Part shown: positions 8,606 through 24,398 of the stretch, piece by piece
How positions within the stretch are numbered: the stretch's first letter is position 1
Layout: the number at the start of each line of letters is the position of its first letter
Source: a virus
DNA length: 64,000 bases
IMG/VR virus record: IMGVR_UViG_3300030102_006903
Span: 49,374-113,373 of that record
Strand: one strand, 5' to 3'
Notes under the pieces: generated by a model
Told to the model about the DNA's origin: nothing
The model's input: only the letters and a program-made list of their open reading frames with translations
Databases searched by the model: none
Program-made: the position numbers and the translations under genes

Positions 8606-11314
8606 TTAGAATCTGTATTTGAATGAAGCATTCCATGTACGTCCGAATCCGAACCATACTGAATTTCTTGTATCAATACCATTCCATGTTTCTGAAGCTG
8701 CTCCAGCATGGATGTTTGAGTTAGATTCTGCAATGTAGTAAGTATCAAGTAAGTTGTTGATATTTACTCTGAATGAAGCATCATTTCCGAATAAGTTGAA
8801 TCTAAAGGTTGAACCTAAATCAACTAATCCATAAGATGGTAACTTCAATGCACCCGCATTGTCAGGTGCTGTAAATTCTGAATCAGTAATTGAGTAATCT
8901 GCGTAAAGATTATCTACAAATCTATATCCTAAATCTACATTTAACTTGTTTCCAAGTTTATAATCTGCTTCTAAGTAAGAAACGAATTGAGCTGCATCAC
9001 CAACTTTAGCATCTTTTAAGTACAATGTACCTGTTCCGATTTGTTGGTTTTCATCATCAAATAACGCTGCTTCAAAATCTTTAGTATATCTCCAATCACC
9101 GATTGATAACATACCTTTTAATCTTAGTTTAGAATTATAATCATAAGTTGCCTCAACTTCTATACCGTTGTGAACTACATCGATATCCTTGAATTGTGCG
9201 AATCCATCAACACCTTGTTGGTTTGATAAACTTCTTGTAACAAATCTGTTACCCCATACTGTTGAGTATGCGTTTACATTTGCTCTGAAGTTATTTCCAA
9301 TGAATCCATATCCTAATTCAACCGATTTAATTTCCTCATTTTGTAAATCAGGATTAACAGTATTAGCATAGTTAGGGAATACACCATCAAAGTTTGGTTG
9401 TCTTGAGATGAAACCAGCATTGAAGAATACATTATTCTTTTCATCAATGTTATAGTTTGCACCACCTTTTAGATAACCACCACCAACATTCTTAGTATCA
9501 GATATTGGATTACCTGGTTGTCCAAAGTAATCAATTCTTTGGAAAGATTGATTTGATAAACCAGCTTGTAATACAGCAGATAAAGTAGAGTTGTTATATT
9601 CAACTAAACCATTTAAACCTTGCCAACCAACTTTACCAATATTATAGTAAGCGATTTTAGGGCCTCTGATACCTGTATCTTTGAATGGATTTGCTTCAAC
9701 TAATGTATTAATTATTTGTCCTGCAGAGTTATCATTACCAGTTGAGTAATAACCATCTAATCCCATTAGGTGGTTTAATGCTCTATAATGATATCCTTTG
9801 TAGTTTCTTAAATCAATACCGATTGAAGTTTTCCAATTCCCTTTCTCATATTCTAAGTTAGAGATTGCTCCAACCCAGTCATGAGAGTTCATAGAAGCTC
9901 TTCTAATAAGTGCACTTCTGTTAACACCATCAGCATTGAATCCATTTGAACCAATCAATTGACCTGTAAATGGTAAATCACCACTATATGGGTCTGTGTT
10001 TGCTTGGTTATATGCAACTACTGCATCAAAATCAATAAATCCTTCTGGTGTTCTTGAACCTCTACCATTTTCTAAGTAGTGTTCAGTAAGGTCTTTTCTA
10101 AATGGTAAGATATCAGTTTCCGAGTTGTAATAACTTTTACCTCTTGGACCTGTTCCTCCACCTCTACCAGCTGAACCATATAATGATGTAGCTAATTTAA
10201 GGTTAGAATTAATATCCCAATCCCAATTCAGAGTTGCTAATGGTTTGTTGTAGAAGTTTCTTCTCATTGAGAATTCTTCTCCATTTAAAACACCACCATT
10301 TGTATTCCATCTTCTATCAATTCCTTCTGTACCAAAGTTTTGGTAGTCTCTAATAGAAACCCAAACATCTCTTTGGTGGTGCCATTGACCAGCACCTAAG
10401 AAAGAAAAGTTAACTGAGTGCTTAGAATCTTCAGGTGCATATCCTAATGCAAAGAAGTAAGTATAACCCTCACCACTTGTATTATAGATATATCCATCAC
10501 CTTGCCATCTACTTAATAAGAAAGATGAAGCCCAACCATTGTCATTAAGACCTGTTGAGTGAGAAACAGTAGTTTTGAAATACCCATCATTACCAAATGT
10601 TTGAGCAATTGAACTACCACTTCTTGCTTCAGCTGCCTTAGTAAAGATTGATACAGTTCCACCTACTGATGGTACTGCTAATCTTGAAGCACCTAAACCT
10701 CTCTGTAATTGGATTCCACTTGCAACATCAGTAAGACCTTGCCAGTTAGACCAATAAACCCATCCATTTTCCATATCGTTAACTGGTTGCCCATTGATAA
10801 GGAAAGATGTATTTCTTTGGTCGAATCCTCTTAAAGAGATTCTCGAATCACCATATCCACCACCTTGTTTGGTTGCGTAGACACCTGGTGTTCTGTTCAT
10901 TATCTCAGGAAACTCTTGGTTACCTACTTTGAGTGCGATTTCTGATGGTGAAATAGTTGAAACTGCTACAGGTGTTTCTCTCACCTTTGCAATATCAATT
11001 ACACCAGAACTTACAACAACCTCACCAAGTACATTCAAGTCAGGTGTTAAACCTACTTTCGTGTTACCACTTGATTCAATTACTGTGGTTTCGTACCCTA
11101 AGTAAGAAACAACAAGTGTTGTTCCCTCAGATACATCAAGAATAAATGTCCCATCAAAACCTGATATTGTACCATCTTGAGTTCCCTCAATGATGATAGT
11201 AGCACCTGGTAAAGGGTCATTTGTCTCGACATCATAAACTAATCCACTTATTTGGGAAAAGCTTGCTGTTATACTTCCAAATAGGAATAACAGACTTAAC
11301 ATTAAATTTCTCAT
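8606..11314 (-). CDS. TonB-dependent outer-membrane receptor (Bacteroidota type)
   Basis: Signal peptide followed by Gln; CarboxypepD_reg-like N-terminal extension (PLPGATI...FDGTF...SYLGY); plug (PGVY...ISLRG...LINGQP); barrel ending NINNLLD...GRTWNASFKYRF. Confidence 0.93.
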   Translation of the reverse strand: MRNLMLSLLFLFGSITASFSQISGLVYDVETNDPLPGATIIIEGTQDGTISGFDGTFILDVSEGTTLVVSYLGYETTVIESSGNTKVGLTPDLNVLGEVVVSSGVIDIAKVRETPVAVSTISPSEIALKVGNQEFPEIMNRTPGVYATKQGGGYGDSRISLRGFDQRNTSFLINGQPVNDMENGWVYWSNWQGLTDVASGIQLQRGLGASRLAVPSVGGTVSIFTKAAEARSGSSIAQTFGNDGYFKTTVSHSTGLNDNGWASSFLLSRWQGDGYIYNTSGEGYTYFFALGYAPEDSKHSVNFSFLGAGQWHHQRDVWVSIRDYQNFGTEGIDRRWNTNGGVLNGEEFSMRRNFYNKPLATLNWDWDINSNLKLATSLYGSAGRGGGTGPRGKSYYNSETDILPFRKDLTEHYLENGRGSRTPEGFIDFDAVVAYNQANTDPYSGDLPFTGQLIGSNGFNADGVNRSALIRRASMNSHDWVGAISNLEYEKGNWKTSIGIDLRNYKGYHYRALNHLMGLDGYYSTGNDNSAGQIINTLVEANPFKDTGIRGPKIAYYNIGKVGWQGLNGLVEYNNSTLSAVLQAGLSNQSFQRIDYFGQPGNPISDTKNVGGGYLKGGANYNIDEKNNVFFNAGFISRQPNFDGVFPNYANTVNPDLQNEEIKSVELGYGFIGNNFRANVNAYSTVWGNRFVTRSLSNQQGVDGFAQFKDIDVVHNGIEVEATYDYNSKLRLKGMLSIGDWRYTKDFEAALFDDENQQIGTGTLYLKDAKVGDAAQFVSYLEADYKLGNKLNVDLGYRFVDNLYADYSITDSEFTAPDNAGALKLPSYGLVDLGSTFRFNLFGNDASFRVNINNLLDTYYIAESNSNIHAGAASETWNGIDTRNSVWFGFGRTWNASFKYRF

Positions 11315-11538: not shown

Positions 11539-13173
11539 TTAAGGTTTATAAAAAACGAAGATTGGTTCAAATTTATACACTTTCCCGTCATGTTTGACCG
11601 AGTTCTTTATACCACTTTTAGATGGGTCTAACCCAACCATCCTTGTCATCAACATTTTTAACTTACCTTTATATTCACATCCTAACTCATTTAAGATATC
11701 AATTGAATCTTGTTCAAGTGGATAATAGATTGATTTACCTATCTTGATATCAGCAATATTCCATAAAATATACCTATCATTCTTTAGATACTCATAAATC
11801 GTTGTTAGAGTAGGTTTTAAGAAGTTATCTCTCCAATCTTCATATTCACCATATGCTTTAAAAGATTGGTTCTCATCTTGAGAGTATTGTTCTCTGTTAA
11901 AATATGGAGGTGAAGTAAATGCAATATCTAACTTACCTTTATATTTTTGAAATTTTGGATTATTTGAGATTACCTCAGAACCATCTTGAAATAATTCGTA
12001 AGTGTTTCCTTGTTTTTCAACATTAAAAAATGATGTAAGTTTATCTGAGAAATCATCTACACAATTATCATTATAAAACTTAGCAACATATTCGTAACGA
12101 GAAATACCTAATTCATCTAAGAAGTTATCTGGATTAGGGTCTGTACCAACATAGTGAACTTTCTTACGAGAACTCATCGCACCGATGATTCTACCACCCC
12201 AACCACTTGATGAATCGTAAATATGTAATGGTTCATCTGTATCGATGTGGTTAGTATAATTTTCGTAAATCCACTTTGCAGTTAGTGCAGGAAAGTTTAC
12301 TGCAGGTTGTCCACAACTCAATCTAAATACTTGTAATATCTTTGGGAAGATACCAACTGTCTTATCATACCATCTTATTAGGTATTTGTATTTAGTGACT
12401 GTTCCTGCCTCTGAAGTTGTTGAATCAACTATTTCACCAAGATTTGATGTTTGAGTACTATTAAGATAACCAGTCGCAAGTAAACCATTTACTTCTTCTG
12501 AATTTAAATATAAGTTACCAAATCCAACATATTGTTCATTGAATGTTCCATAGTTTTTAAGAGTAGATTCTTTTACTCTCGCTAAAACAATTCCTAAATC
12601 AGAATATTTTCCTTTAAACACTTTACCATCATGAACATCTTTTATAAACTGAACCCCATCTTGTCCATTCCAAAAAGGATTCTCATCTTTTTTATCTACA
12701 AGTGAACGAGACCAAGAATACATAGAATCTCTTTTAACTGCTCGTTTCATAATATTAACGAACTTATCTTCCATACTTGTATCGGAAAAATGGTCATAAA
12801 TAGATAAACCATTATCAGCAGATTTACCAACTGATATTTTTGTTTTTAACATTGTAGGAAAAAACTGATTTACAACTGATGCATCTTTATTAAAGTTTTG
12901 TATTACTCCTAAAGATTCTTCATCACCACTTGTATCTTTTTTCCAATACTTTGCTGGATTAGATTTAAGTTTCTTGAATGATTTTATAATACCCTTTTCA
13001 TTCTTACCAATAACTGGTGGAGTTCCTCTATCATCCCATTGTTCAGTAACCTCCTTACGAAGCAAACGAGCCCATTGAACGAACTCATCATCAGTCATTT
13101 CTAACAACTGATGATAAGTCGTATTGGATTTAAACTCAGAAAATCTGCTTTTTTCGTAAAAGTGTTTACTCAT
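11539..13173 (-). CDS. DNA amino-methyltransferase-like protein (N6-A/N4-C fold)
   Basis: YDSSSGWGGR SAM-binding motif and FTSPPYF catalytic motif. Confidence 0.85.
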   Translation of the reverse strand: MSKHFYEKSRFSEFKSNTTYHQLLEMTDDEFVQWARLLRKEVTEQWDDRGTPPVIGKNEKGIIKSFKKLKSNPAKYWKKDTSGDEESLGVIQNFNKDASVVNQFFPTMLKTKISVGKSADNGLSIYDHFSDTSMEDKFVNIMKRAVKRDSMYSWSRSLVDKKDENPFWNGQDGVQFIKDVHDGKVFKGKYSDLGIVLARVKESTLKNYGTFNEQYVGFGNLYLNSEEVNGLLATGYLNSTQTSNLGEIVDSTTSEAGTVTKYKYLIRWYDKTVGIFPKILQVFRLSCGQPAVNFPALTAKWIYENYTNHIDTDEPLHIYDSSSGWGGRIIGAMSSRKKVHYVGTDPNPDNFLDELGISRYEYVAKFYNDNCVDDFSDKLTSFFNVEKQGNTYELFQDGSEVISNNPKFQKYKGKLDIAFTSPPYFNREQYSQDENQSFKAYGEYEDWRDNFLKPTLTTIYEYLKNDRYILWNIADIKIGKSIYYPLEQDSIDILNELGCEYKGKLKMLMTRMVGLDPSKSGIKNSVKHDGKVYKFEPIFVFYKP

Positions 13174-13954: not shown

Positions 13955-16471
13955 TTAAAATGTAAAAAATTTCTCTGCTGTTCTTTGTTCACTTACAACA
14001 TCACCCCAACCAATTGCATCATAAAAATCTTGAAGTTTACCTTTTAACTCTCTTTCAAAAATTTTATTGTGGTCAATGTAAGTGTTAATGAATTCATTTA
14101 TTTCTGATGGGTCTTTATAACCTGTAAATGCCAAACCACTTAATCCAAGTGGATTATCTTTTAAATAAACCCATTTTACCTTATCACCATTTTTCATAGG
14201 TTCATATTTGAATGGTGCATCAAAATGTTTCAAACAATCGTTATATGCGATTGCAGCTTTTACATGAGCGGGTGTTCCTTTCATAAATTGAAACAAATTT
14301 CTTTTTCCTTTTGGTAAATACTTTTTAAGATTTTTAACTGCTGAATTCTTTGCAATTACTTTCATATCTTGATTTACCATAGATTTTTTAAAATCTAATA
14401 CTTTATCTGATATTTCTTCTTCTGTTTGTCCTCGTAGAATTGATATAAGAACATCTGCCATGATTTCTTGAAATGCTTTTGGGAATGAACTTCTTTTAAC
14501 ATCCAAACCTTTTACATCTAATTTATCAACAGGTACTCCATTATCTGAAATAATCCATTGAGCATATCTTTTCTTGGCAATCCACAATCCAGCCTTTGCA
14601 ACATATTCCTTTTTGATTTCTAATCTATGTTTATCCTTATCAACATTAAAAATTCTTTTGGAAAGTATATTATAGAAATCATTAAGATAATCTTGCATCT
14701 CTTCTGCTATAACATTAACATACCCAGCGATAGTATCTTGTTCTTCATCTTTCCAATTAGGATATCTTTTATCCATCAGAGGAACTGCAGAAAAGAAAAC
14801 TGAATCAGTATCAATATAAATGTTTGAATCAGCATCTGGTGTATTTAATTCTTTGTTGTACTTAATATTCCCCATATCCGCAGTGGATTTAATCACAGTT
14901 TGACCTGTGGTTGTAACTGCCTCAGCATTATCAACATCATAAAATCTAAATGCAGGTAAACCTAATACACCATACAATGAGTTTAATAAAATCTTTTGAA
15001 CCAATTGTCTTTTATGATAAAACGCATATTTTTCTTTGTTACCTGCTTTACCATATTTTTTCATTGCATTTTTAAAATCTACTCTTTGATTAAACCAAAG
15101 GTTAAGAATATCTGGTATACAACCAACTTTATCAGTTCTATACAATACACCATTTGATGATACTGAAAAATTAGATTGTTCTAAATATTTTTTTAGATTA
15201 TCTCGTGAGATTGTATCTTCACCGATAAAGTAAGTATCTACCTCACCTTTAAGAAATTTATTTGCATCCCAATCTCTAATTTTACCAATCTTTGATTCTG
15301 GTGAAATATTCAAAGTCATAATGATTGATGGATATAGAGAGGTTAAATCCAAATCATATACCCAATCGTATTTACCAACTATTGGTGATTTAACATATGC
15401 ACCAATAAACTTCTCTTCATTGTTATCTCTAATTGCCTGCATCTTTTCCTGTCTATCTGCAGGTTTGTTTGGTGCAACTAAGTTTTTTCTTCTAAGGAAT
15501 GAAAGTAATGCACCTTCAAGATATTTTGATGAATAAACAAAATCTTCATAAGGAACATGTCCTGCATGAGTAATACCTCTACATAAATCAATAAACTGAA
15601 GTTTCTTATCAAATTCAACTACCAACTCAACATCTACTAAGTTATACTCAATAAACTTTTCAATATCTTCTTTAAATAATTGGTCAAGATTTCCTTGATA
15701 TTCAATCTTACCTCTACCTAATTCAATTTGTCCAATGGTATCTAATCGATAATTTGGTAGTTCATTGTAATTAAATTTTTTGTATAATGTTATGTAATCT
15801 AAATAAGATACACCTGCCATGAAATATCTTTTACGATATGGTGAATAGAAACATTGTCCAATTGGTGATAATCTATTCGCTTGTCTCTGTCCCAATAATC
15901 TTTTGATTCTATTGTATAACATTGGTGTATCGAAATAATCAATATTCCAACCTGTAACGATAGATGGATTAATGTATTCATATAATTCCAAATATTTCAT
16001 CAACATATCTCTTTCATCTGCAAAAGGGATTACAATACATTTATCAGTAGTTTTTTCTTCAAGAATACCTTCGTTATCCATAACCAATACCCAATATTGA
16101 TTTGTAGCGGAATCATGTAGTGCAATAGAAGTAATAGCATTCTTTGCTTCTTGTGGGTCTGGTGTTCCACTTTCCATTTCACACTCAATATCGTAAGTAA
16201 GAATAACATGACCAGTTGATGGTTCATCTGAATCTGAGTATAAATCTACTAATGCTCTTGTAGTTTCTGGTACATCTGATTCAAATAAGTTTGCATCATC
16301 TTTACTGAATTTATAAATTTTTGTTAATTTATCTCCATAAATAGAAGTATATTCACCTCTTTTAGCAGGTTCATATGCATATCTAGTATAAGGAAAAGAA
16401 CGATATCCTTGTTTATCATCCCAAAGATGAATTAGATTTTTTTCACGCTGATAATAAATGTTTTGATACAT
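13955..16471 (-). CDS. family B DNA polymerase (T4 gp43-like)
   Basis: Exonuclease motifs YDIE, GWNIDYFD, YNLVD; polymerase motifs DLTSLYPS, KILLNSLYG, YIDTDS, KKRY. Confidence 0.97.
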   Translation of the reverse strand: MYQNIYYQREKNLIHLWDDKQGYRSFPYTRYAYEPAKRGEYTSIYGDKLTKIYKFSKDDANLFESDVPETTRALVDLYSDSDEPSTGHVILTYDIECEMESGTPDPQEAKNAITSIALHDSATNQYWVLVMDNEGILEEKTTDKCIVIPFADERDMLMKYLELYEYINPSIVTGWNIDYFDTPMLYNRIKRLLGQRQANRLSPIGQCFYSPYRKRYFMAGVSYLDYITLYKKFNYNELPNYRLDTIGQIELGRGKIEYQGNLDQLFKEDIEKFIEYNLVDVELVVEFDKKLQFIDLCRGITHAGHVPYEDFVYSSKYLEGALLSFLRRKNLVAPNKPADRQEKMQAIRDNNEEKFIGAYVKSPIVGKYDWVYDLDLTSLYPSIIMTLNISPESKIGKIRDWDANKFLKGEVDTYFIGEDTISRDNLKKYLEQSNFSVSSNGVLYRTDKVGCIPDILNLWFNQRVDFKNAMKKYGKAGNKEKYAFYHKRQLVQKILLNSLYGVLGLPAFRFYDVDNAEAVTTTGQTVIKSTADMGNIKYNKELNTPDADSNIYIDTDSVFFSAVPLMDKRYPNWKDEEQDTIAGYVNVIAEEMQDYLNDFYNILSKRIFNVDKDKHRLEIKKEYVAKAGLWIAKKRYAQWIISDNGVPVDKLDVKGLDVKRSSFPKAFQEIMADVLISILRGQTEEEISDKVLDFKKSMVNQDMKVIAKNSAVKNLKKYLPKGKRNLFQFMKGTPAHVKAAIAYNDCLKHFDAPFKYEPMKNGDKVKWVYLKDNPLGLSGLAFTGYKDPSEINEFINTYIDHNKIFERELKGKLQDFYDAIGWGDVVSEQRTAEKFFTF

Positions 16472-16476
16472 AAGTA

Positions 16477-16508
16477 CAAATATACGAATTATTTTTCAAA
16501 TATCCAAA
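16477..16508 (-). promoter_or_regulatory. Bacteroidota-type -33/-7 promoter
   Basis: TTTG-N20-TATATTTG ending 5 nt before the PolB ATG. Confidence 0.8.
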
Positions 16509-17739
16509 TAGGTTCACAAAAAGTTTTATCTTGATTCTCTTCTGTATTCTTAAGAGTTTCTTCTTTGTATTGATTTTGGTTATGTTCGGTTTGTTTAACA
16601 GTTCCTGCTCCTCCACTATTAGGTCTTTTAGCAAGTTCCATACCTATACAACCTTTATATGTTAATCCTTTTGATTCTAAGAATTCACACATCGGTTGTG
16701 TAATTTCTTTCCAATCTTTTCCACCTCCACCTTTTTCTGAAGTGTAAACATCTGCAATATTAATTGCCATCTTACCACCTTTTTTCATAGTTGGTATAAT
16801 TTTTTCTAATGCTTTATGAAGAAAATATTCATTCCATGCTTGAATAGATTGATATCTAATCCAACTTTGAGTTTCATCATCTCCATATCTTTCTACATTA
16901 AAGTAAGGTGGTGAAGTGAAAACCAAATCAAAATAATCATGATATTCTGAATAATCAAAATCTTCTGCAGGTGATTGATGTAAATCTACCTTTGTTGGGT
17001 TCTCAAAGAAAGAAGTATGTTTTTGATAAAATTCAGCTTGTTGTTTGTATATTGGATGATTTTCTTTTCTTGGGTCGATTCCAACATAATGATTTACTGT
17101 TGAACTAGCACAGGCACCAGATAAACGGTCTCCCCAGCCAGCAGAAAAATCTAACATTTTTTCACTTCCAAAATATTCTGTTAAACATTTAGTGACATTT
17201 GGTTTATGTTGAGATGCTATATATTTACGAAGTGAAATCATTAACCTTAATTCCTTCTTTCCAATTTTATCTAATTTTAAACTATATGCTGCACCCATCA
17301 AAGTAACCATAAATGCTCTTGTTCTCCATGTCCTTGCTGGACCTGGATATCCACTTGAACAGATTGACCATCTGTTTTTTTCTTGCCACCAATTACTAGA
17401 GAGGTTACCTACATTATATCTTTTAAAGAAAAGAGGTTTACCTTCATATGTCAAAGAATATTTAGATTCTCGTGATTGTCTTTGAAACCATTCTTTTCCT
17501 TCAATTAATAATTCATTCCAGCGTATTCCTTTTAATTTAAAGTAATCATCTCTACAATTTTTTTCTGAATATTTTTCTGTCTGATATGGTAGAGGATATG
17601 TCATACACAAATCTGCAAGTTTTTCTTTAACCTCATCCTTCGTGTACATATCTTTTATATTTTGCCACTCTTCCTCATTTATCTCTAAATAAGGTTTCAT
17701 ATCATAAAATTTTTCAAAGTAATCTTCTCCGCCGTGCAT
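16489..17739 (-). CDS. DNA amino-methyltransferase-like protein (paralogue of 11539-13173)
   Basis: LDFSAGWGDR and FTSPPYF motifs; C-terminal EPIWIF. Confidence 0.85.
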   Translation of the reverse strand: MHGGEDYFEKFYDMKPYLEINEEEWQNIKDMYTKDEVKEKLADLCMTYPLPYQTEKYSEKNCRDDYFKLKGIRWNELLIEGKEWFQRQSRESKYSLTYEGKPLFFKRYNVGNLSSNWWQEKNRWSICSSGYPGPARTWRTRAFMVTLMGAAYSLKLDKIGKKELRLMISLRKYIASQHKPNVTKCLTEYFGSEKMLDFSAGWGDRLSGACASSTVNHYVGIDPRKENHPIYKQQAEFYQKHTSFFENPTKVDLHQSPAEDFDYSEYHDYFDLVFTSPPYFNVERYGDDETQSWIRYQSIQAWNEYFLHKALEKIIPTMKKGGKMAINIADVYTSEKGGGGKDWKEITQPMCEFLESKGLTYKGCIGMELAKRPNSGGAGTVKQTEHNQNQYKEETLKNTEENQDKTFCEPIWIFEK

Positions 17740-18584
17740 TATTTTAAGTTTAATGATTTTCTATATGAACCACCAATATTCCAAAATAGAATCTTACCAT
17801 CTAAGTTCTGAATATTATTTTCTAACCACCACCACATTTTTCTTTCCCAAAACTCATTCATATCAAATGGATATTCGGTAACACCATCCATAAAATCATC
17901 GAATGCGTATTCTGATTTATAAATGTTAATATTATTTAAATCACCTGCCTTATTTTGATTTAAAATCTTTTTAGTAGATTCTATTGCTGACATTGTTACT
18001 GTGTGTACTTTTCTTCTATTGTTAAGTAAATCTTTCCAATCTTTATATTGAAGAAATTCTCTAATCAAACCAGATGCTGTTACACCACTTCCAATCGATA
18101 CAACGAGATGGTCAAAATCTTGTTCTTCCAAAACTTCTTTCATTCTATCTTGCATGTAAGAAACATACGAAGGATGATTGAAAGCATACGGTAATTGTTG
18201 CCAACCTTCCTTTTTTGCGATACCACCAAGTTTATTCTCAAGTAATTTCATCATATTTGGTTTCAATGGATTTAGTGTTGCACCATTTCCTTTAATGATT
18301 TCTAATATTTCTGGTGGATATGATTTTGAATTAGGGTAAGATGATATAAACTCAATACCATATTCCTTACACATCTTTGACAATGTCCAACCAGTCCAAC
18401 TTCCATATACTGAAAGATGGGTTAGTGGTTTTGATTTATCAATGTAATCAGATTCTATAATCTTTCTAATACCTTCAATCTTAGCCCATCGTGGATAGTT
18501 TACACCATCCCCAACTAAATCATCTCTTTTGACATGAACTACTTTACCTTTTAATTTATATTCTTCGATTGGTGTTTGTATCAT
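17739..18584 (-). CDS. PLP-dependent fold-type II enzyme (ACC deaminase / D-cysteine desulfhydrase-like)
   Basis: TPI...VKRDDL...K, the VSIGSGVTASG phosphate loop, and ILFWNIG. Confidence 0.8.
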   Translation of the reverse strand: MIQTPIEEYKLKGKVVHVKRDDLVGDGVNYPRWAKIEGIRKIIESDYIDKSKPLTHLSVYGSWTGWTLSKMCKEYGIEFISSYPNSKSYPPEILEIIKGNGATLNPLKPNMMKLLENKLGGIAKKEGWQQLPYAFNHPSYVSYMQDRMKEVLEEQDFDHLVVSIGSGVTASGLIREFLQYKDWKDLLNNRRKVHTVTMSAIESTKKILNQNKAGDLNNINIYKSEYAFDDFMDGVTEYPFDMNEFWERKMWWWLENNIQNLDGKILFWNIGGSYRKSLNLK

Positions 18585-20086
18585 ATAAATTTGTATATTC
18601 CAACATTGTTATTCTTAACTCTTTCTCTTAATTTCTTATGTGAAAATCCATGTATCTTTTCAAAGTTATCACAAATAACATGAAACAATTTTTTTCTGTT
18701 TTTAAAGTTTATATTTGAATCTTCTAAAATAATAGTTTCTATGTACTCTTTAAAATTTGTACCTTTTTGAAAAGCCCTTTTTTCTTGGTCTAATATTTCA
18801 TCAGGTAATTTACCTCTAAATGCATCTGCAAGTGGTCTTTTCCATTGTCCTTTATCTGATAAAAATTCATCTTGTAAATTTGTTGTATAATTTAAAAACT
18901 CTGTATCAAAGAATGGACATCTAAGTTCGATAGTTCCATAATTCATAAAAATTGTATTACCTCTTAACAAATTACCATAATGTTGTTTCTCAAATAAATT
19001 CTTTCTAACATCACTCCAATCTGGCTTTTTACTAAACATTCTAAATGTACCATATGAACCATACGATTCATCAGAACCCTCACCACTAAATGCAACTTTG
19101 ATTCCATCCTTTACCATCTCTTCTGCAATAAACGATTGTAATATACCAACTTCCATTTGAACTGTTGATGGGTATTCTATTACACTTATAGAATCAATGA
19201 ATCTTTGTTTGATTATCTTTTCATCTCTTGGTACAAATACCTCAATAAGTTCAACTCCAATTGAATCTGCACAAACTCTTGCTTTTTGTAAATCTTTTGA
19301 ATCTTGGTCAAAAGCAATTGTATATGCTTTGATATCTGGTATTCTTTGTGCAAGTAAATATGTAATGATTGCTGAATCTATTCCACCACTTAATGAAGTT
19401 GCAATAGGTACATCAGATAATAATCTTTTATCAACTGCATTTTCTAATAGTTTAAATGTAGTTTTACCAACCTCTTCATGTGATTTTGGTTTAGTTACCT
19501 CATCTGAAAATTGGAAATAAAAGTTTTCGTGTATTTTAAAATCATCTGTATCTAAATCGATTTCTATAAGAGTATTTTTAGGTACAATTTGAATATCATT
19601 TATTCCTTCTTGAGTTAAAATTGATTTTATCTCAGATGCAATGATATATTGATTGGTATTATGGATGTAGAGGGGTATTTTACCCACCCAGTCACGAGAT
19701 AATATGATTTTGTTCGTATCATATATAACAAAAGAAAACATCCCATCTAACCTCTCTAATTCGTTTTCTTTGTAAAGATATAAAATTATCTCTGAATCTG
19801 AATTAGATTTGAATTTATATCCTCTCTGTTCGTATTCTTTACGCAATTGTGGATAATTCCAAATCTCACCATTTACAATTAAATGAGTATCTTCAAATTC
19901 CATCGGTTGATTACCTAATGGAGATATATCATTTATTGATAAACGATTATGACCAAGATGAATTGTTTTATCTTTGTATAAAAATTCTTTTATACCACGA
20001 TTATCTTTTCCACGATGAGAAATCTCTTCTAACATCGTATCTACATCACTATGTTTATAACCAATCGTTGCTACGATTCCACACAT
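18581..20086 (-). CDS. asnB: asparagine synthetase B-like glutamine amidotransferase
   Basis: N-terminal MCGI (Ntn Cys), HRG.D, HNRLSI, NGEIWN, SGGIDS PP-loop, SGEGSDE, ELRCPF.D. Confidence 0.92.
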   Translation of the reverse strand: MCGIVATIGYKHSDVDTMLEEISHRGKDNRGIKEFLYKDKTIHLGHNRLSINDISPLGNQPMEFEDTHLIVNGEIWNYPQLRKEYEQRGYKFKSNSDSEIILYLYKENELERLDGMFSFVIYDTNKIILSRDWVGKIPLYIHNTNQYIIASEIKSILTQEGINDIQIVPKNTLIEIDLDTDDFKIHENFYFQFSDEVTKPKSHEEVGKTTFKLLENAVDKRLLSDVPIATSLSGGIDSAIITYLLAQRIPDIKAYTIAFDQDSKDLQKARVCADSIGVELIEVFVPRDEKIIKQRFIDSISVIEYPSTVQMEVGILQSFIAEEMVKDGIKVAFSGEGSDESYGSYGTFRMFSKKPDWSDVRKNLFEKQHYGNLLRGNTIFMNYGTIELRCPFFDTEFLNYTTNLQDEFLSDKGQWKRPLADAFRGKLPDEILDQEKRAFQKGTNFKEYIETIILEDSNINFKNRKKLFHVICDNFEKIHGFSHKKLRERVKNNNVGIYKFI

Positions 20087-20087
20087 A

Positions 20088-20786
20088 CTATCTGTTTAAT
20101 ACTTCTAATAACTTTATTGTTTTCTTTTTTTCATTATCCATATCACCGATATGACATGAACATGCAAGTGTAGTTACTTTTTCTAATTCTAATCCACTTT
20201 GTTCAGCAAGGAAATGTCCCATCTCTGTTAACGCTGTATAATCTGCGTAACCACTTTTAGATACTCTATTTGAACGAAGAATTGATGTAAGGTATAGTTT
20301 ACCATTTCTTGGTTTTAAATCAATCATACACATACAAGGTTGTGAATAAGGATTCCTTGCATCTTTAGTGGGGTCAAAGATAATTAGTTCACATCTTTTT
20401 ACTGCTTTTCCACTACTTAAAATTTTAATTACATTCTCAACCTGATTGAATTCACCTTTCCAAGATACCATTCTACCCCAATAAGATTGATGATAATGTT
20501 CTTTTATAAATTTATAATCCAAACCTTGTTCTGTTTCAAAAAATGGATTATCAGATTTCTTTTCTTCTGGTTTTAAAAATGTAACTGTCTTTGCAAAATC
20601 AATTCTATCATCACCCATTACCTCTCTAAAATATCCATCGAACCAATCATCTGATTTAAATTCTGTAATTTCAGTTACAACATTTAATTCTTCTGTAAGA
20701 TTTCCCACTCTCACACCATTTTCCAATAAATGTTTTGATACTTTCACCCATGCATCGCCAGGAGAAGTTGCTTCAATAATAGTCAT
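20088..20786 (-). CDS. thymidylate-synthase-fold enzyme, dCMP-type (dCMP hydroxymethylase-like)
   Basis: Catalytic QPC, then RNGKLYLTSILRSNRVSKSGYADY and SCHI. Asp sits at the position equivalent to E. coli ThyA N177. Confidence 0.8.
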   Translation of the reverse strand: MTIIEATSPGDAWVKVSKHLLENGVRVGNLTEELNVVTEITEFKSDDWFDGYFREVMGDDRIDFAKTVTFLKPEEKKSDNPFFETEQGLDYKFIKEHYHQSYWGRMVSWKGEFNQVENVIKILSSGKAVKRCELIIFDPTKDARNPYSQPCMCMIDLKPRNGKLYLTSILRSNRVSKSGYADYTALTEMGHFLAEQSGLELEKVTTLACSCHIGDMDNEKKKTIKLLEVLNR

Positions 20787-20787
20787 A

Positions 20788-21003
20788 TTATATTCTATTA
20801 ATTGGTATTGTTATTAAATGATAATCTGAAAATTGTGGGTGTTGTTGTGTAAAATCAATTTTATCATTTAATTTTTTTTGGTATGCATAATGTGTTTCAA
20901 TAAAATACATAACCTCAGTTCCATCGATACTTTTAAGTTTTTTACTTTTGTTGATAGGAACTTGTGGAGTTCCTTTAATTTTAGTTGGTTTTTTTTCGTC
21001 CAT
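20788..21003 (-). CDS. hypothetical protein (first gene of the putative modification operon)
   Basis: 71 aa ORF immediately after the promoter at 21023-21054. Confidence 0.65.
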   Translation of the reverse strand: MDEKKPTKIKGTPQVPINKSKKLKSIDGTEVMYFIETHYAYQKKLNDKIDFTQQHPQFSDYHLITIPINRI

Positions 21004-21022
21004 AGAATTTATTTAAGTTATA

Positions 21023-21054
21023 CAAAGATAAGAAAAAAATTTTAATTTTACAAA
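21023..21054 (-). promoter_or_regulatory. Bacteroidota-type -33/-7 promoter of the putative modification operon
   Basis: TTTG-N20-TATCTTTG. Confidence 0.75.
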
Positions 21055-21236
21055 TGTTTCCAAGTTTTTCTTTTGCCAATTTCTTCCACATTCCAAGGAC
21101 TTATGTTAAAATTCCTTGCAATTATGTTTGAACTAAACCCCTTTTCGTACAAATCTCGTATCTGATATACTTGATTATTATTTAGTTTAGCTCTAGGATG
21201 TGATTCTCCTCTTAATATTTTACGAGTTGATTTCAT
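21048..21236 (-). CDS. stand-alone helix-turn-helix domain like the C-terminus of HNH homing endonucleases
   Basis: RGESHPRAKL...V.QIR...IARNFNIS...I..RKTWKHL. Confidence 0.7.
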   Translation of the reverse strand: MKSTRKILRGESHPRAKLNNNQVYQIRDLYEKGFSSNIIARNFNISPWNVEEIGKRKTWKHL

Positions 21237-21498: not shown

Positions 21499-23280
21499 TT
21501 AACCATCACACGCAACACAATCTGGGTCTACTGCTCTAGTTGCAATATCTCCTCTAAGAACTGATTCAGTTCTCATATAATATAGAGTTTTAATTCCTTG
21601 TTTCCAAGCCTCTAATGTAACTTGATTTATCCACTTCGGTGTTGCAATCGAAGGGAAAGCTAAATTTAATGAAACTCCTTGGTCAATATACTGTTGTCTA
21701 ACACCAGCCTGTTTTACCAAGTCCATTTGATTAATTTCTTTGAATGTTCTAAAAACATCTTTTACAGGATAAACTTTTTCTCTTTCTCCATTAGTAATTT
21801 CTTCACAAAGTACCATTTTACCTTCTAAGTAACACCACTTATCAAGTTCTTTGATATCTTGTACTGAACCACCATCTTCCAAAATTTTATCCCAAGTTTC
21901 TTTATTATTAACACCTGCTTTTCTTAATACCTTTACTAACTCACCATTTTTTCTGATGAATGTACCTTTTGAAGTTTGTTCAGTAAATACATTCGCTGCC
22001 CATGGTTCGATACCAGCAGATACATTTCCAGCTAATTTAGAATTACTTACTGTTGGAGCAACTGCTCTTAAGTGAGTATTTCTAAATCCACTTTCTCTAC
22101 ACCATAGAGGTTCACCCATTTCAGATGCCATATCTCTTGATGCTCTTTCTGATTCTATCTTTAACTGAGAAAAAATCTTACGAGTTTCAAATTGTGCCTC
22201 CATACCTTCAAATGGAATACCATTTTGTTGTAGGTAAGTGTGCCATCCTAAAACTCCTAATCCTAATGCTCTACCTTTTTCAGCAGATGCAACAGAGTTT
22301 TCAAATCCTCTCATGTTTTTTGCTTTTTGAATAAACTCTGAAAGAACACCATCTAAAAACCAAGTTGCTGTATAAACTAAATCAGTATCTCTCCACTCAT
22401 TGTATTTAGCAAGATTTACTGATGATAAACAACAAACAAAGGAATGGTTTTCATCTGTGTGTAAAGTAATTTCAGAACATATGTTTGTCATATGTACTTT
22501 CAATCCATTTTTTTTGTACATCTCAGGATTAGATTTATTAATATTTCCTTTGTACATGATGTATGGTTCACCAGTTGCTTTTCTTTTTTGTAGTAATTTT
22601 CCCCACCTTCTTCGTGCATCAGGTTCTCCTTGTTCAAGTTTTCTCATAAACTTATCACCTACAACTGCACATTGGTGTAGATTAAGTGATTGTCTATTTA
22701 CATCTCCTTTAGGTTCTCTGATTTCTAACCAATCTTCAAAATCTTCATGTTCGATATTAAGGTTAACAGATGCTGCTCCTCTTCTTACTGAACCTTGGTT
22801 TGTAGCAAGGATTGTAGAATCATATATTTTACAGAATGGTACAACACCATCAGATGTTCCATTACCTGTAATGGTAGCACCAGCAGGTCTTATTTGGTTT
22901 ACACCAATACCAACTCCACCACCATGTTTAGCAAGTAACATTAGTTCTAAGTTTTTAGAACCAATATCGTATATTGAATCGGCAACATCAATACCAAAAC
23001 AAGATATAGGTAATCCTCTATCAGTGCCAGTATTTGAAAGAACTGGTGTTGCTAAGTTTAACCAACCTTTCCATATATAATCAAAAAACTTAGTTGCCAG
23101 TTGAGGTTTGTTTAATCTTTGAGCAACTCTTGTTGCAACTCTCCAATAAGCATCTTTTGGTTTTTCACCTGGTAATAGGTATCCTTTAGATATTGTTTTT
23201 ACATAAATTTCTGTATTTCCCCAAGAAGGAAAATCAACATCGATTTCCCAACCTAATTCTTCGCCGTAGTTTTTTGCCAT
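21499..23280 (-). CDS. nrdA: ribonucleotide reductase class I alpha subunit (short form, no ATP cone)
   Basis: ATPVLSN, PISCF, TNICSEI, VCCLSS, APTVS, KTLYY, and C-terminal CVAC. Confidence 0.95.
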   Translation of the reverse strand: MAKNYGEELGWEIDVDFPSWGNTEIYVKTISKGYLLPGEKPKDAYWRVATRVAQRLNKPQLATKFFDYIWKGWLNLATPVLSNTGTDRGLPISCFGIDVADSIYDIGSKNLELMLLAKHGGGVGIGVNQIRPAGATITGNGTSDGVVPFCKIYDSTILATNQGSVRRGAASVNLNIEHEDFEDWLEIREPKGDVNRQSLNLHQCAVVGDKFMRKLEQGEPDARRRWGKLLQKRKATGEPYIMYKGNINKSNPEMYKKNGLKVHMTNICSEITLHTDENHSFVCCLSSVNLAKYNEWRDTDLVYTATWFLDGVLSEFIQKAKNMRGFENSVASAEKGRALGLGVLGWHTYLQQNGIPFEGMEAQFETRKIFSQLKIESERASRDMASEMGEPLWCRESGFRNTHLRAVAPTVSNSKLAGNVSAGIEPWAANVFTEQTSKGTFIRKNGELVKVLRKAGVNNKETWDKILEDGGSVQDIKELDKWCYLEGKMVLCEEITNGEREKVYPVKDVFRTFKEINQMDLVKQAGVRQQYIDQGVSLNLAFPSIATPKWINQVTLEAWKQGIKTLYYMRTESVLRGDIATRAVDPDCVACDG

Positions 23281-24398
23281 TATATTAAATTTTTTACTAA
23301 ATCGTTATTTTTTACAAGTATCAATATTTGATATTTTTCATTTTTTGTAACACTTTTATAAGTTACATGCTGGTATGGTTTATAAATTAAACATTCACCA
23401 ACTTTTGGTTTTATTAATGAAAATGTATTTCTATCGTTTTTATACCATTCATCATAAACCTCAACCTCACCACCTTCATAATCATCATTCAAAGTTATAT
23501 CATAGGTAGTAACATATTGTTTTTTATCATCAAAAGGCATATCTTTGATTGTTTCTACATGTCTATCGTATTTATTGCCTTCTTCATATTTTACAAAAAC
23601 ACAATCTACCTTATTCATATCAATTGGTTTAAATTTTGAAAATAAAGTATTATTGATAATTTTTTCAAATTCTTTATTATACTTTAGTTTTCTTCTAAAC
23701 CACTTTCTTTTATGTAGTATTCCTTCAACTTCTTTTTCTACATCCTCAAAAGACAAATTATCTTTGTTTTCTGAAATTAATTTACTACATAATTCTGTTG
23801 TTAAAATATTTTTAGAATCGTAAAACTTATCTTTTCTAAATTCCCCACCTACAAAATATGTCCAGCATATTGTATGGTAAGGTTTTAACAATAGTTCGTA
23901 ACCTTCTTGTTGTAGACCCATTGCTTTTGAATTTAGTAAATCTAAACTTTTAAGTTCAGCATATTCATAAATCGATAAACAACAATTTTCATTTGAGATT
24001 AATTTTGCATAATCTTCAAACTTTGAATAATTTTTATCCTCATAGGTATCCATAAAGATACCATCAAATTTTTTACTAAGAGTTGGAATTACATCTATCC
24101 AATCTCCGAAGATAATTTCTACATTATCTTTATCTTTTGCCCACTCAATTGCTGTATCATAAATTTGTTTATTGATTTCGATACAAGTGTAACTCTTAAC
24201 ACCCATAGAGTAAAATCTATTAGCAGAGTAACCTAAACCAAAACCAATATCTAAAATATGACCACCACCTTTTCCAACTACATTACAAAACTCTTCTGTA
24301 AGTGGTTTTGCTATTTTATCCATAACGATACCTTTATTTTTGATACCATCAGAATAAAATATTCTATCCTTTGTTATCGTAACCTTTTTATTTTTCAA
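23280..24398 (-). CDS. fusion of a class I SAM methyltransferase (GAMT/Rmt2-like) and a 2OG-Fe(II) oxygenase-like domain
   Basis: ILDIGFGLG, IEIN, GDW, FDGIFMDTY; then Y..G..Y.RHVE...LNDDYEGGE. TTG start. Confidence 0.75.
   Translation of the reverse strand: MKNKKVTITKDRIFYSDGIKNKGIVMDKIAKPLTEEFCNVVGKGGGHILDIGFGLGYSANRFYSMGVKSYTCIEINKQIYDTAIEWAKDKDNVEIIFGDWIDVIPTLSKKFDGIFMDTYEDKNYSKFEDYAKLISNENCCLSIYEYAELKSLDLLNSKAMGLQQEGYELLLKPYHTICWTYFVGGEFRKDKFYDSKNILTTELCSKLISENKDNLSFEDVEKEVEGILHKRKWFRRKLKYNKEFEKIINNTLFSKFKPIDMNKVDCVFVKYEEGNKYDRHVETIKDMPFDDKKQYVTTYDITLNDDYEGGEVEVYDEWYKNDRNTFSLIKPKVGECLIYKPYQHVTYKSVTKNEKYQILILVKNNDLVKNLI

Follow-up and report, generated by a model that had tools for sequence, protein, structure and literature searches.

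A candidate cytosine hypermodification module centred on a thymidylate-synthase-fold enzyme in uncultured marine T4-like phages

The stretch of DNA analyzed here (hereafter the window) comprises 64,000 nucleotides, positions 49,374 to 113,373 of the IMG/VR virus record IMGVR_UViG_3300030102_006903, taken from the right-hand end of a virus contig of 113 kb with a completeness of about 59%. Its G+C content is about 30% and the minus strand carries every gene. Just ahead of the gene of the family-B DNA polymerase (PolB, 13955-16471) lie a 71-amino-acid (aa) open reading frame (orf71, 20788-21003) and the genes of a thymidylate-synthase (TS)-fold enzyme (TS232, 20088-20786), an asparagine-synthetase-like amidotransferase (AsnB501, 18581-20086), a fold-type-II pyridoxal-phosphate (PLP) enzyme (PALP281, 17739-18584) and a 416-aa SPPY methyltransferase (MTase)-like protein (MT416, 16489-17739). 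A second SPPY MTase-like protein, of 544 aa (MT544, 11539-13173), is encoded past PolB and the clamp. A previous reading of the nucleotide sequence alone (the sequence-only reading) had proposed that the five genes from orf71 to MT416 form an operon for the hypermodification of a DNA base. The present analysis points to a mobile module of four genes (MT544, TS232, AsnB501 and PALP281) that probably makes an amide- and/or amine-bearing cytosine in virion DNA by a new route.

The five open reading frames (ORFs) are indeed tightly packed on one strand, with 1-nt gaps between orf71 and TS232 and between TS232 and AsnB501, a 4-nt overlap between AsnB501 and PALP281 and a 1-nt overlap between PALP281 and MT416, and the last gene does reach the polymerase gene, from which it is separated by only 17 nt. 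The fold assignments proposed for the four enzymes were also borne out, since Pfam and PHROG matches agree with them and the MCGI, SGGIDS and TSPPYF motifs are seen in the translations. The single promoter placed at 21023-21054 was not recovered: a scan for sigma-70-like promoters gave 54 sites (60 +/- 7 expected by chance from shuffled sequence), none of them at this position, and the upstream genes are all co-oriented. As sigma-70-like sites are at chance level and the upstream genes have the same orientation, no promoter claim is possible.

A scan of IMG/VR based on AsnB501 identified 64 loci (61-92% identity). The TS, AsnB and PALP genes have one order and orientation in all 56 loci that span the three genes; in the remaining eight, the contig edge is at most 76 nt away from the AsnB gene. 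Spacing is kept as well: it stays within +/-10 nt at the TS/AsnB junction in 53 of these 56 loci, and does not exceed 54 nt at the AsnB/PALP junction in 55 of them. Insertions of about 0.25-1.4 kb, possibly homing-endonuclease genes, break otherwise tight junctions in L015, L013 and L014 (TS-AsnB) and in L040 (AsnB-PALP). Some loci (L041 and others) belong to an unrelated lineage that lacks T4-like synteny; UvdE, a GH6 enzyme and an HD protein are among those encoded nearby. A tblastn search with every minus-strand ORF of the 113-kb contig found exactly four gene families common to the contig and this lineage, i.e. those of MT544, TS232, AsnB501 and PALP281. All four are contiguous there, the MT544 orthologue (73% identity) being directly upstream of TS-AsnB-PALP. 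Therefore, the mobile unit is the four-gene module and not the five ORFs initially proposed. MT416 is present in zero to two copies in related loci, upstream or downstream of the trio, and is missing in L003, L004 and L007. It is an accessory gene, and it is its 544-aa paralogue, outside the segment first delimited, that travels with the trio and is, from this distribution, taken as the fourth core gene. For its part, orf71 has no Pfam or PHROG match and has a relative (54% identity) in just two of the 64 loci; therefore it falls outside the conserved unit and is probably not a module member. The co-conservation of the genes and their movement as a unit are in line with the role proposed in the sequence-only reading.

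Eleven studies (2014-2025) include a total of 19 marine or aquatic sequencing runs whose contigs contain near-identical DNA, none of the runs listed being of RNA, and in IMG/VR the genes occur on dozens to hundreds of contigs. No relative of TS232 turned up when 185,579 prokaryote genomes were scanned with a pattern. The 4.6-kb region has no match at the DNA level among 50,697 phage records. The carrier is a widespread uncultured marine T4-like phage, and the module appears from these searches to be virus-only and horizontally mobile.

AsnB501 matches the Pfam families Asn_synthase (1.9e-42) and GATase_7 (1.3e-31) and displays an N-terminal MCGI and a SGGIDS PP-loop. The residues of both the glutaminase (C2, NRLSI, NGEIWN, SDSE) and the synthetase (SGGIDS, SGEGSDE) are kept, and C2, N72-G-E74, S96-D-S-E99, S233-G-G-I-D-S238 and E336 are invariant in the family alignment. 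AsnB501 is therefore predicted to be an intact glutamine-dependent, ATP-dependent PP-loop amidotransferase. In a PDB search it is matched by Escherichia coli AsnB (1ct9) at E 5e-40. Asp384 of the E. coli enzyme, which we take to bind the amino group of the substrate, is replaced by Asn, and Arg387 is retained. The best match of AsnB501 among the 50,697 phage records is gp124 of Streptomyces phage TurkishDelight (31% identity over the full length, pairwise E 1e-74), which carries the same Asp384 to Asn replacement. This protein is encoded between a PF00145 C5-cytosine MTase and a CmoA-like class I MTase, with two adjoining ParB-like genes, an architecture shared by the CmoX/CmoY/CmoA clusters (Yang et al. 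2025, PMC12783734). The second-largest class of CmoY ligases bears a glutaminase and is predicted to amidate 5-carboxymethylcytosine (5cxmC) with glutamine-derived ammonia, and ligation of glycine to 5cxmC in DNA was demonstrated for SpCmoY, which has no glutaminase (PMC12783734). As judged from these comparisons, the closest relatives of AsnB501 are the CmoY-type ligases with a glutaminase that belong to the 5cxmC pathway. The predicted complex of AsnB501 and TS232 had a score of 0.00, which gives no answer and speaks neither for nor against binding.

PALP281 matches the Pfam family PALP (9.5e-7) and, over almost its whole length, phrog_7093 (E 8.6e-20, residues 3-271 on profile positions 5-278 of 279). 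It is 26-28% identical to proteins named "threonine dehydratase" from the Pseudomonas phages M6 and Yua and from related Bordetella phages, and in particular shares 27% identity with M6 gp52 across 95% of its length. Its K35, found without exception in 46 family members, aligns with K36 of gp52, which has been proposed to form the Schiff base. Purified M6 gp52 is a PLP-dependent decarboxylase that converts C-alpha-glycinylthymidine in DNA into 5-aminoethyl-dU (Lee et al. 2021, PMC8989533), and gp226 of phage ViI likewise decarboxylates O-serinylthymidine (PMC8989533). Homology thus places PALP281 in the M6 gp52/ViI gp226 family of on-DNA amino-acid decarboxylases, and we infer that it decarboxylates an alpha-amino-acid moiety on a DNA base. 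This full-length relationship to an enzyme proven to act on DNA, with its lysine kept, strengthens the role in base hypermodification that had been proposed for the locus.

TS232 matches Pfam PF00303 (Thymidylat_synt) at E 6e-6, just above the cut-off (25.9 bits for 24.3), and TIGR03283 (methanogen-type TS) at E 8e-21, under the cut-off. Its AlphaFold2 (AF2) model has a pLDDT of 86.5. The best structural match of this model is 9iqu, the dCMP hydroxylase AfhB of HY126 (Z 20.3, root-mean-square deviation (rmsd) 2.7, 197 residues), followed by 9iqc (AfhB family with FAD) and by the CMP hydroxymethylase MilA (5b6e, Z 19.7); ordinary thymidylate synthases match at a Z of about 17. Overall, VIA aligned the model with TS-family structures at Z 16.6-20.3 and rmsd 2.7-3.3 over 189-202 residues. 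TS232 is therefore modelled with confidence as a protein of thymidylate-synthase fold. It is the sole TS-family gene of the contig. A profile search of 1.84 billion representatives showed that its clade is discrete, with about 13 full-length clusters at 50% identity scoring 169-449 bits, the best full-length match among other TS-like proteins scoring about 101 bits. Its nearest homologues in cultured phages adjoin a beta-glucosyltransferase or an aGPT-Pplase, which are hypermodification contexts.

The residues of TS232 that correspond to the active site of ThyA fall into two groups. Those that are kept include Cys151 (ThyA C146) and R171 and S172 (ThyA R166/S167, the phosphate site), all invariant in 22-37 family sequences, as well as a KR pair matching ThyA R126/R127; the Cys and the RS motif align with those of MilA, T4 gp42 and M6 gp58. 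D182, the counterpart of ThyA N177, does not vary among 37 unique family members and aligns with Asp179 of T4 gp42 and with an Asp of MilA. An Asp at this position is the switch to cytosine nucleotides (PMC13326640), and the cytosine-type TS homologue announced by the sequence-only reading is thereby supported. The second group concerns the cofactor side. ThyA Asp169, which binds folate, is replaced by Arg174 in all 37 unique close relatives, which display the motif RS-N/M/Q-R-V-S-K-S-G-Y-A-D, whereas RSND is kept in T4 gp42, M6 gp58, Enterococcus phage vipetofem gp57 and Glutamicibacter phage Montesquieu 51. Three residues before the catalytic Cys (ThyA L143 position), the TS232 family has Ser, Gly or Lys and never the acidic residue that activates water in hydroxymethylases, whereas these same four proteins have Asp. 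Hydroxymethylases have Asp or Glu at the L143 position and 5-hydroxy-dCMP synthases have a diagnostic D169N (PMC13326640). The TS232 family has Arg or Ala and no Asn at position 169, and thus does not carry the hydroxylase signature; nor does TS232 combine Asp169 with an acidic residue at the L143 position, as T4-type dCMP hydroxymethylases do. The comparison with T4 dCMP hydroxymethylase made in the sequence-only reading consequently fails at the level of mechanism, and the elaboration of 5-hydroxymethylcytosine (hmC) by amidation can no longer be the default. Lacking Asp169 and having Asp at the N177 position, TS232 is neither a thymidylate synthase nor a canonical hydroxymethylase; its residues are those of a cytosine-nucleotide enzyme with a rewired cofactor pocket.

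The best PDB sequence match of TS232 is MilA (E 1.6e-4), a CMP (ribo) enzyme of antibiotic biosynthesis, which also ties for the top structural match. This raises the question of whether the module could, like the peptidyl-nucleoside antibiotic pathways that MilA initiates, make a modified cytidine nucleotide or nucleoside that stays free and serves as an inhibitor, as a signal or against host defences. The phosphate-binding residues of TS232 imply a mononucleotide substrate, and ThyA Tyr209, which presumably contacts the 3'-OH of the deoxyribose, is replaced by Gly. Furthermore, the tailoring of nucleoside natural products typically relies on amidotransferases, PLP enzymes and methyltransferases. 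However, no transporter, sugar-tailoring or peptide-ligase genes co-travel with the module, and the nearest characterised or contextual relatives of PALP281 and AsnB501 act on DNA. In addition, the module is located in a replication block, between uvsX/gp41/ribonucleotide reductase (RNR) genes and PolB, and the corresponding slot of T4, between uvsX/41 and gene 43, is occupied by gene 42 (dCMP hydroxymethylase) and beta-gt. We consider a free nucleotide product improbable, and favour a modified base in virion DNA.

The two MTase-like proteins share 29% identity in their catalytic domain. MT416 matches N6_N4_Mtase below the cut-off (E 4.6e-5, 23.9 bits for a PF01555 cut-off of 26.7) and phrog_12517 (2e-12); MT544 of the window has no Pfam match, and its L041 orthologue scores 33.5 bits against PF01555. 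Motif I (DSSSGWGGR in MT544, DFSAGWGDR in MT416) and motif IV (TSPPYF in both) are conserved, and their order is typical of gamma-class amino-methyltransferases. Both proteins therefore resemble amino-methyltransferases dependent on S-adenosylmethionine (SAM). MT416 showed no similarity to the two TurkishDelight methyltransferases in pairwise comparisons. MT544 consists of an N-terminal region of about 275 aa and a C-terminal SPPY amino-MTase domain (about 278-544), and its AF2 model has a pLDDT of 79.8. Foldseek and VIA matches are confined to the C-terminal domain. The PDB sequence search with MT544 found no match (E <= 10), and the ESM Atlas search with residues 1-300 returned only viral hypothetical clusters with scores <0.9; the N-terminal 275 aa or so thus matched nothing in these searches. 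MT544 relatives are numerous (at least 579 IMG/VR loci; 1,956 clusters at 90% identity among 8,000 candidates scored), and the MTase domain is 27-32% identical to phage DNA MTases, one of which is annotated as N4-cytosine-specific. The role of the MTase-like proteins in the pathway is the least secure part of our interpretation.

The best structural matches of MT544 are the transfer RNA (tRNA) m2G MTases Trm11, TrmN and Trm14 (Z 14.4-15.8, about 179 residues), and PrmC, a glutamine-amide methyltransferase, matches at Z 12.6. The former would suit a module that modifies RNA, either tRNA or phage transcripts, with side chains like those of wobble uridines (carboxymethylaminomethyl or carbamoylmethyl) that would later be methylated. 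Modification of tRNA typically involves PP-loop enzymes and C5 side chains that bear a carboxyl or an amide, and CmoA/CmoX is itself RNA-modification chemistry borrowed by phages. Nevertheless, the window is devoid of tRNA genes, TS-fold enzymes use mononucleotides and TS232 keeps the phosphate site, while the DNA-acting relatives of two module enzymes and the PolB-adjacent position, matching that of the T4 DNA-modification genes, point to DNA as the target. An RNA substrate thus seems very improbable to us.

The enzymes that start the two known routes were looked for in the 113-kb contig with tblastn. Neither M6 gp51 (aGPT-Pplase2), gp53 (radical SAM) and gp54 (5-hydroxymethyluracil (5-hmU) kinase), nor the TurkishDelight C5-MTase (CmoX) and CmoA-like proteins, have a counterpart there. 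Family searches found neither ThyX nor a dCMP deaminase in this genome and nothing but a MazG-like match below the threshold; as the contig is about 59% complete, these absences carry little weight. In every locus examined, the starters of both known routes are unlinked to the module. The module itself varies between lineages. Jumbo-phage contigs (L207-L213, 109-376 kb) carry, in this order, genes for three MTase-like proteins, a TS, a 303-aa glutaminase-less PP-loop ligase, a PALP and one more MTase-like protein; the four paralogous SPPY MTase-like proteins have 387-401 aa and the ligase weakly matches S-B43 CmoY (E 5e-3). Across lineages, there are one to four MTase paralogues per module. 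L200 combines MTase-like, TS, ligase and radical SAM genes, and L193 MTase-like, TS and radical SAM genes. In L193 and L200 the TS and radical SAM genes are separate and adjacent, whereas P0149 (676 aa) naturally fuses a TS232-type domain (6-217) to a radical SAM domain (382-553), whose best PDB sequence match is AprD4 and which is unrelated to M6 gp53. The hypothesis that the radical SAM protein of L193 is the same isomerase as M6 gp53 was dropped, as no relationship was found. Combinatorial recruitment of tailoring enzymes is known from thymidine hypermodification clusters (PMC8989533). The present modules follow the same pattern, with ligases, PLP enzymes and radical SAM enzymes variously combined with a single entry enzyme, and this suggests an amino-acid-like or carboxylated side chain on the product of the latter. 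Another type of cluster, present in related phages (L140:4440-13164 and L081:968-6634), groups relatives of PALP281 and of MT544/MT416 with a divergent AsnB (33-36%), a short D-2-hydroxyacid dehydrogenase and an Asp/Asn-beta-hydroxylase-like cupin, TS232 not being nearby; it may represent a second, TS-independent route to a related modification.

Taken together, these data lead us to propose the following pathway. TS232 would act on dCMP before replication and place a carboxylate-bearing group at C5. A carboxylate on the new C5 group is proposed because a ligase or amidotransferase gene adjoins that of TS and is translationally coupled to it in nearly all variants, and because the folate Asp is lost and Arg/Lys are gained in the pocket. 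Of the candidates for this group, an amino-acid-derived unit on an activated C5 would be the most likely, a glyoxylate-type adduct being the alternative and a plain hydroxymethyl or hydroxyl group less likely. Kinases and the adjacent PolB would then insert the modified nucleotide into DNA. AsnB501 would convert the carboxylate on the modified base or nucleotide into a carboxamide, and PALP281 would decarboxylate an alpha-amino-acid moiety to leave an amine. The MTase-like proteins would methylate the amide, the amine or an sp2, exocyclic or side-chain nitrogen, or would have DNA methylation as a separate task. Host nucleases would be blocked by the final product, a cytosine that bears an amide and/or an amine. 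If the module does hypermodify DNA, cytosine is quite likely to be the base. The chances that TS232 catalyzes a reaction other than hydroxymethylation or hydroxylation appear evenly balanced. More tentatively, TS232 could represent a new class of TS-fold reaction, in which the Cys attacks C6 of dCMP and the activated C5 or the C5-methylene is linked to a partner with a carboxylate (for instance an amino acid or an electrophile of the glyoxylate type) that would be held by the new Arg/Lys pocket; we regard this as possible, albeit doubtful. Taken individually, the capture of an amino acid by TS232 is rather unlikely and the formation of a glyoxylate-type adduct improbable. Three other schemes were considered and left unsupported: (i) transfer of a SAM-derived 3-amino-3-carboxypropyl group by MT544 followed by decarboxylation by PALP, (ii) C5 carboxylation by TS232, and (iii) PALP281 as a beta-replacement enzyme feeding TS232.

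Several points weigh against this interpretation. Every module function has been assigned by homology at 18-31% identity. A simple alpha-amino acid offers a single carboxylate, for which AsnB501 and PALP281 would be rivals; the use of both would imply a side chain with two carboxylates, different sites or populations of bases, or one of the enzymes acting at the nucleotide level. The Arg at the D169 position is not universal, being replaced by Ala in a distant jumbo-phage branch, and the likeness of TS232 to MilA has been mentioned above. The absence of a dCTPase, a dNMP kinase and other starters also has to be counted, although this is weak evidence since the contig is about 59% complete. AsnB501 passes the cut-off of the generic glutamine-hydrolysing asparagine synthase TIGR01536 (288.2 bits for 267.1), and an ordinary metabolic role is therefore possible for it. 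Likewise, many MT544 relatives adjoin the clamp without the trio, and so may be ordinary DNA methyltransferases.

The last two points bring up a more trivial explanation, in which the genes would be unrelated neighbours with ordinary functions: a TS or dCMP-hydroxymethyl synthase, an asparagine synthetase, a Ser/Thr dehydratase and orphan N4-C/N6-A DNA MTases. The GenBank label "threonine dehydratase" of PALP281-family genes would fit, but this label was overturned by experiment for M6 gp52 (PMC8989533). Similarly, AsnB501 fails the AsnB equivalog NF006949 by far (255.3 bits for a cut-off of 499) and is far closer to a phage protein found in a CmoY context, and the departure of TS232 from Asp169 and its Asp at the N177 position do not fit an ordinary TS. 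RNR and thioredoxin genes are found in the same region and the catalytic domain of MT544 is like that of annotated phage DNA MTases; however, a mere neighbourhood accounts poorly for order and coupling retained in 56 of 56 loci and for four genes that co-move to an unrelated lineage as the sole genes in common. We therefore judge unrelated ordinary functions quite improbable and retain base hypermodification as the preferred interpretation.

A literature search for hypermodification involving a TS and an asparagine synthetase or amidotransferase found nothing describing this module. The parts of the gene set are known kinds of phage DNA-modifying enzymes. The sequence-only reading knew of no pathway joining a TS homologue and an AsnB-type enzyme; this is still true of the combination, but the action of an asparagine-synthetase-type enzyme on a DNA base has a precedent, CmoY (December 2025, PMC12783734). 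Three known systems can be compared with the module. The thymidine pathway of M6/ViI involves a dUMP hydroxymethylase, a 5-hmU DNA kinase, an aGPT-Pplase2, a radical SAM isomerase and the PLP decarboxylase gp52/gp226 (PMC8989533). As in our module, a TS-fold enzyme starts the pathway, the PLP enzymes are homologous over their full length, the genes are near those of RNR and DNA polymerase, and related modules draw in radical SAM enzymes and ligases combinatorially. The differences lie in the predicted base (cytosine instead of uracil/thymine), in the lack of 5-hmU kinase, aGPT-Pplase and SPL-like radical SAM genes in the contig, in the absence from TS232 of Asp169 and of an acidic residue at the L143 position, and in the integration of an AsnB-type amidotransferase and SPPY MTase-like proteins.

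The CmoA/CmoX/CmoY pathway of Synechococcus phage S-B43 yields 5-carboxymethylcytosine and its glycine amide (PMC12783734). There too, an asparagine-synthetase-family ligase tailors a carboxylate on a C5-modified cytosine, the role that we infer for AsnB501, whose resemblance to TurkishDelight gp124 extends to the Asn at the AsnB Asp384 position. Unlike this pathway, the contig has neither CmoA (the carboxy-SAM (Cx-SAM) synthase) nor the C5-cytosine MTase CmoX; the C5 chemistry would instead be supplied by a TS-fold enzyme, presumably on the mononucleotide, and a PLP enzyme is added. Lastly, TS232 shares its fold (Z 19.7-20.3), the catalytic Cys, R166/S167 and the Asp at the N177 position with the cytosine TS homologues, i.e. 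T4 gp42, the flavin-dependent 5-hydroxy-dCMP synthases RB69 gp48/HY126 AfhB (Lee et al. 2026, PMC13326640) and MilA, and its location beside the DNA polymerase gene matches that of gene 42. It differs from them by Arg (Ala in one branch) at position 169, where hydroxymethylases have Asp and hydroxylases Asn, by the non-acidic L143 position and by the lack of a co-travelling glycosyltransferase partner.

If TS232 does catalyze a new class of TS-fold reaction, it would replace on its own the hydroxymethylase, the DNA kinase and the amino-acid transferase of the thymidine pathways, and the resulting amide- and amine-bearing base would be new to DNA and frequent among T4-like and jumbo phages of the sea. 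The module would be a third entry to pyrimidine hypermodification, beside 5-hydroxymethylpyrimidine followed by kinase and transferase, and Cx-SAM with a C5-MTase, and would bring a new activity to the well-studied TS fold. Whether restriction, CRISPR and other nuclease-based defences succeed against a phage is decided by the hypermodifications of its DNA, from which tools have also been derived, among them hmC chemistry and the 5cxmC handle. Given how common the module is in marine data, part of the viral DNA in the sea may contain a base that is treated as C in sequencing and in enzymatic library preparation.

The surroundings of the module form a T4-like replication block. Upstream are found a small helix-turn-helix (HTH) ORF, a thioredoxin gene and those of both RNR subunits, a gp41-type helicase, RNase H, UvsX and gp32; the clamp and a clamp-loader subunit are encoded downstream. 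The HTH ORF (62 aa, 21048-21236, minus strand), which lies shortly ahead of the module, resembles phage HNH/homing endonucleases in their C-terminal DNA-binding part (phrog_20467, 5e-8) and is kept in many relatives (55-76% identity); it seems to be what is left of a mobile endonuclease, or the HTH of one in free-standing form. Between the RNR subunit genes, a 372-aa ORF (23280-24398, minus strand) joins a Methyltransf_25 domain (48-116) to a 2-oxoglutarate (2OG)-Fe(II) oxygenase domain (268-347). It also has a weak match to the NCBIfam "Fe2+-dependent dioxygenase", and a relative (52%) in two related loci only. Its domain content suggests that it could be a further nucleic-acid-modifying enzyme. 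On the other side, a 902-aa ORF (8606-11314, minus strand) is inserted between MT544 and the clamp-loader region. The segment 7300-8587 (minus strand), inside the replication block, encodes a family-2 glycosyltransferase (254 aa) and then a 179-aa P-loop protein (AAA_28), which could be a nucleotide kinase relevant to modified dCMP.

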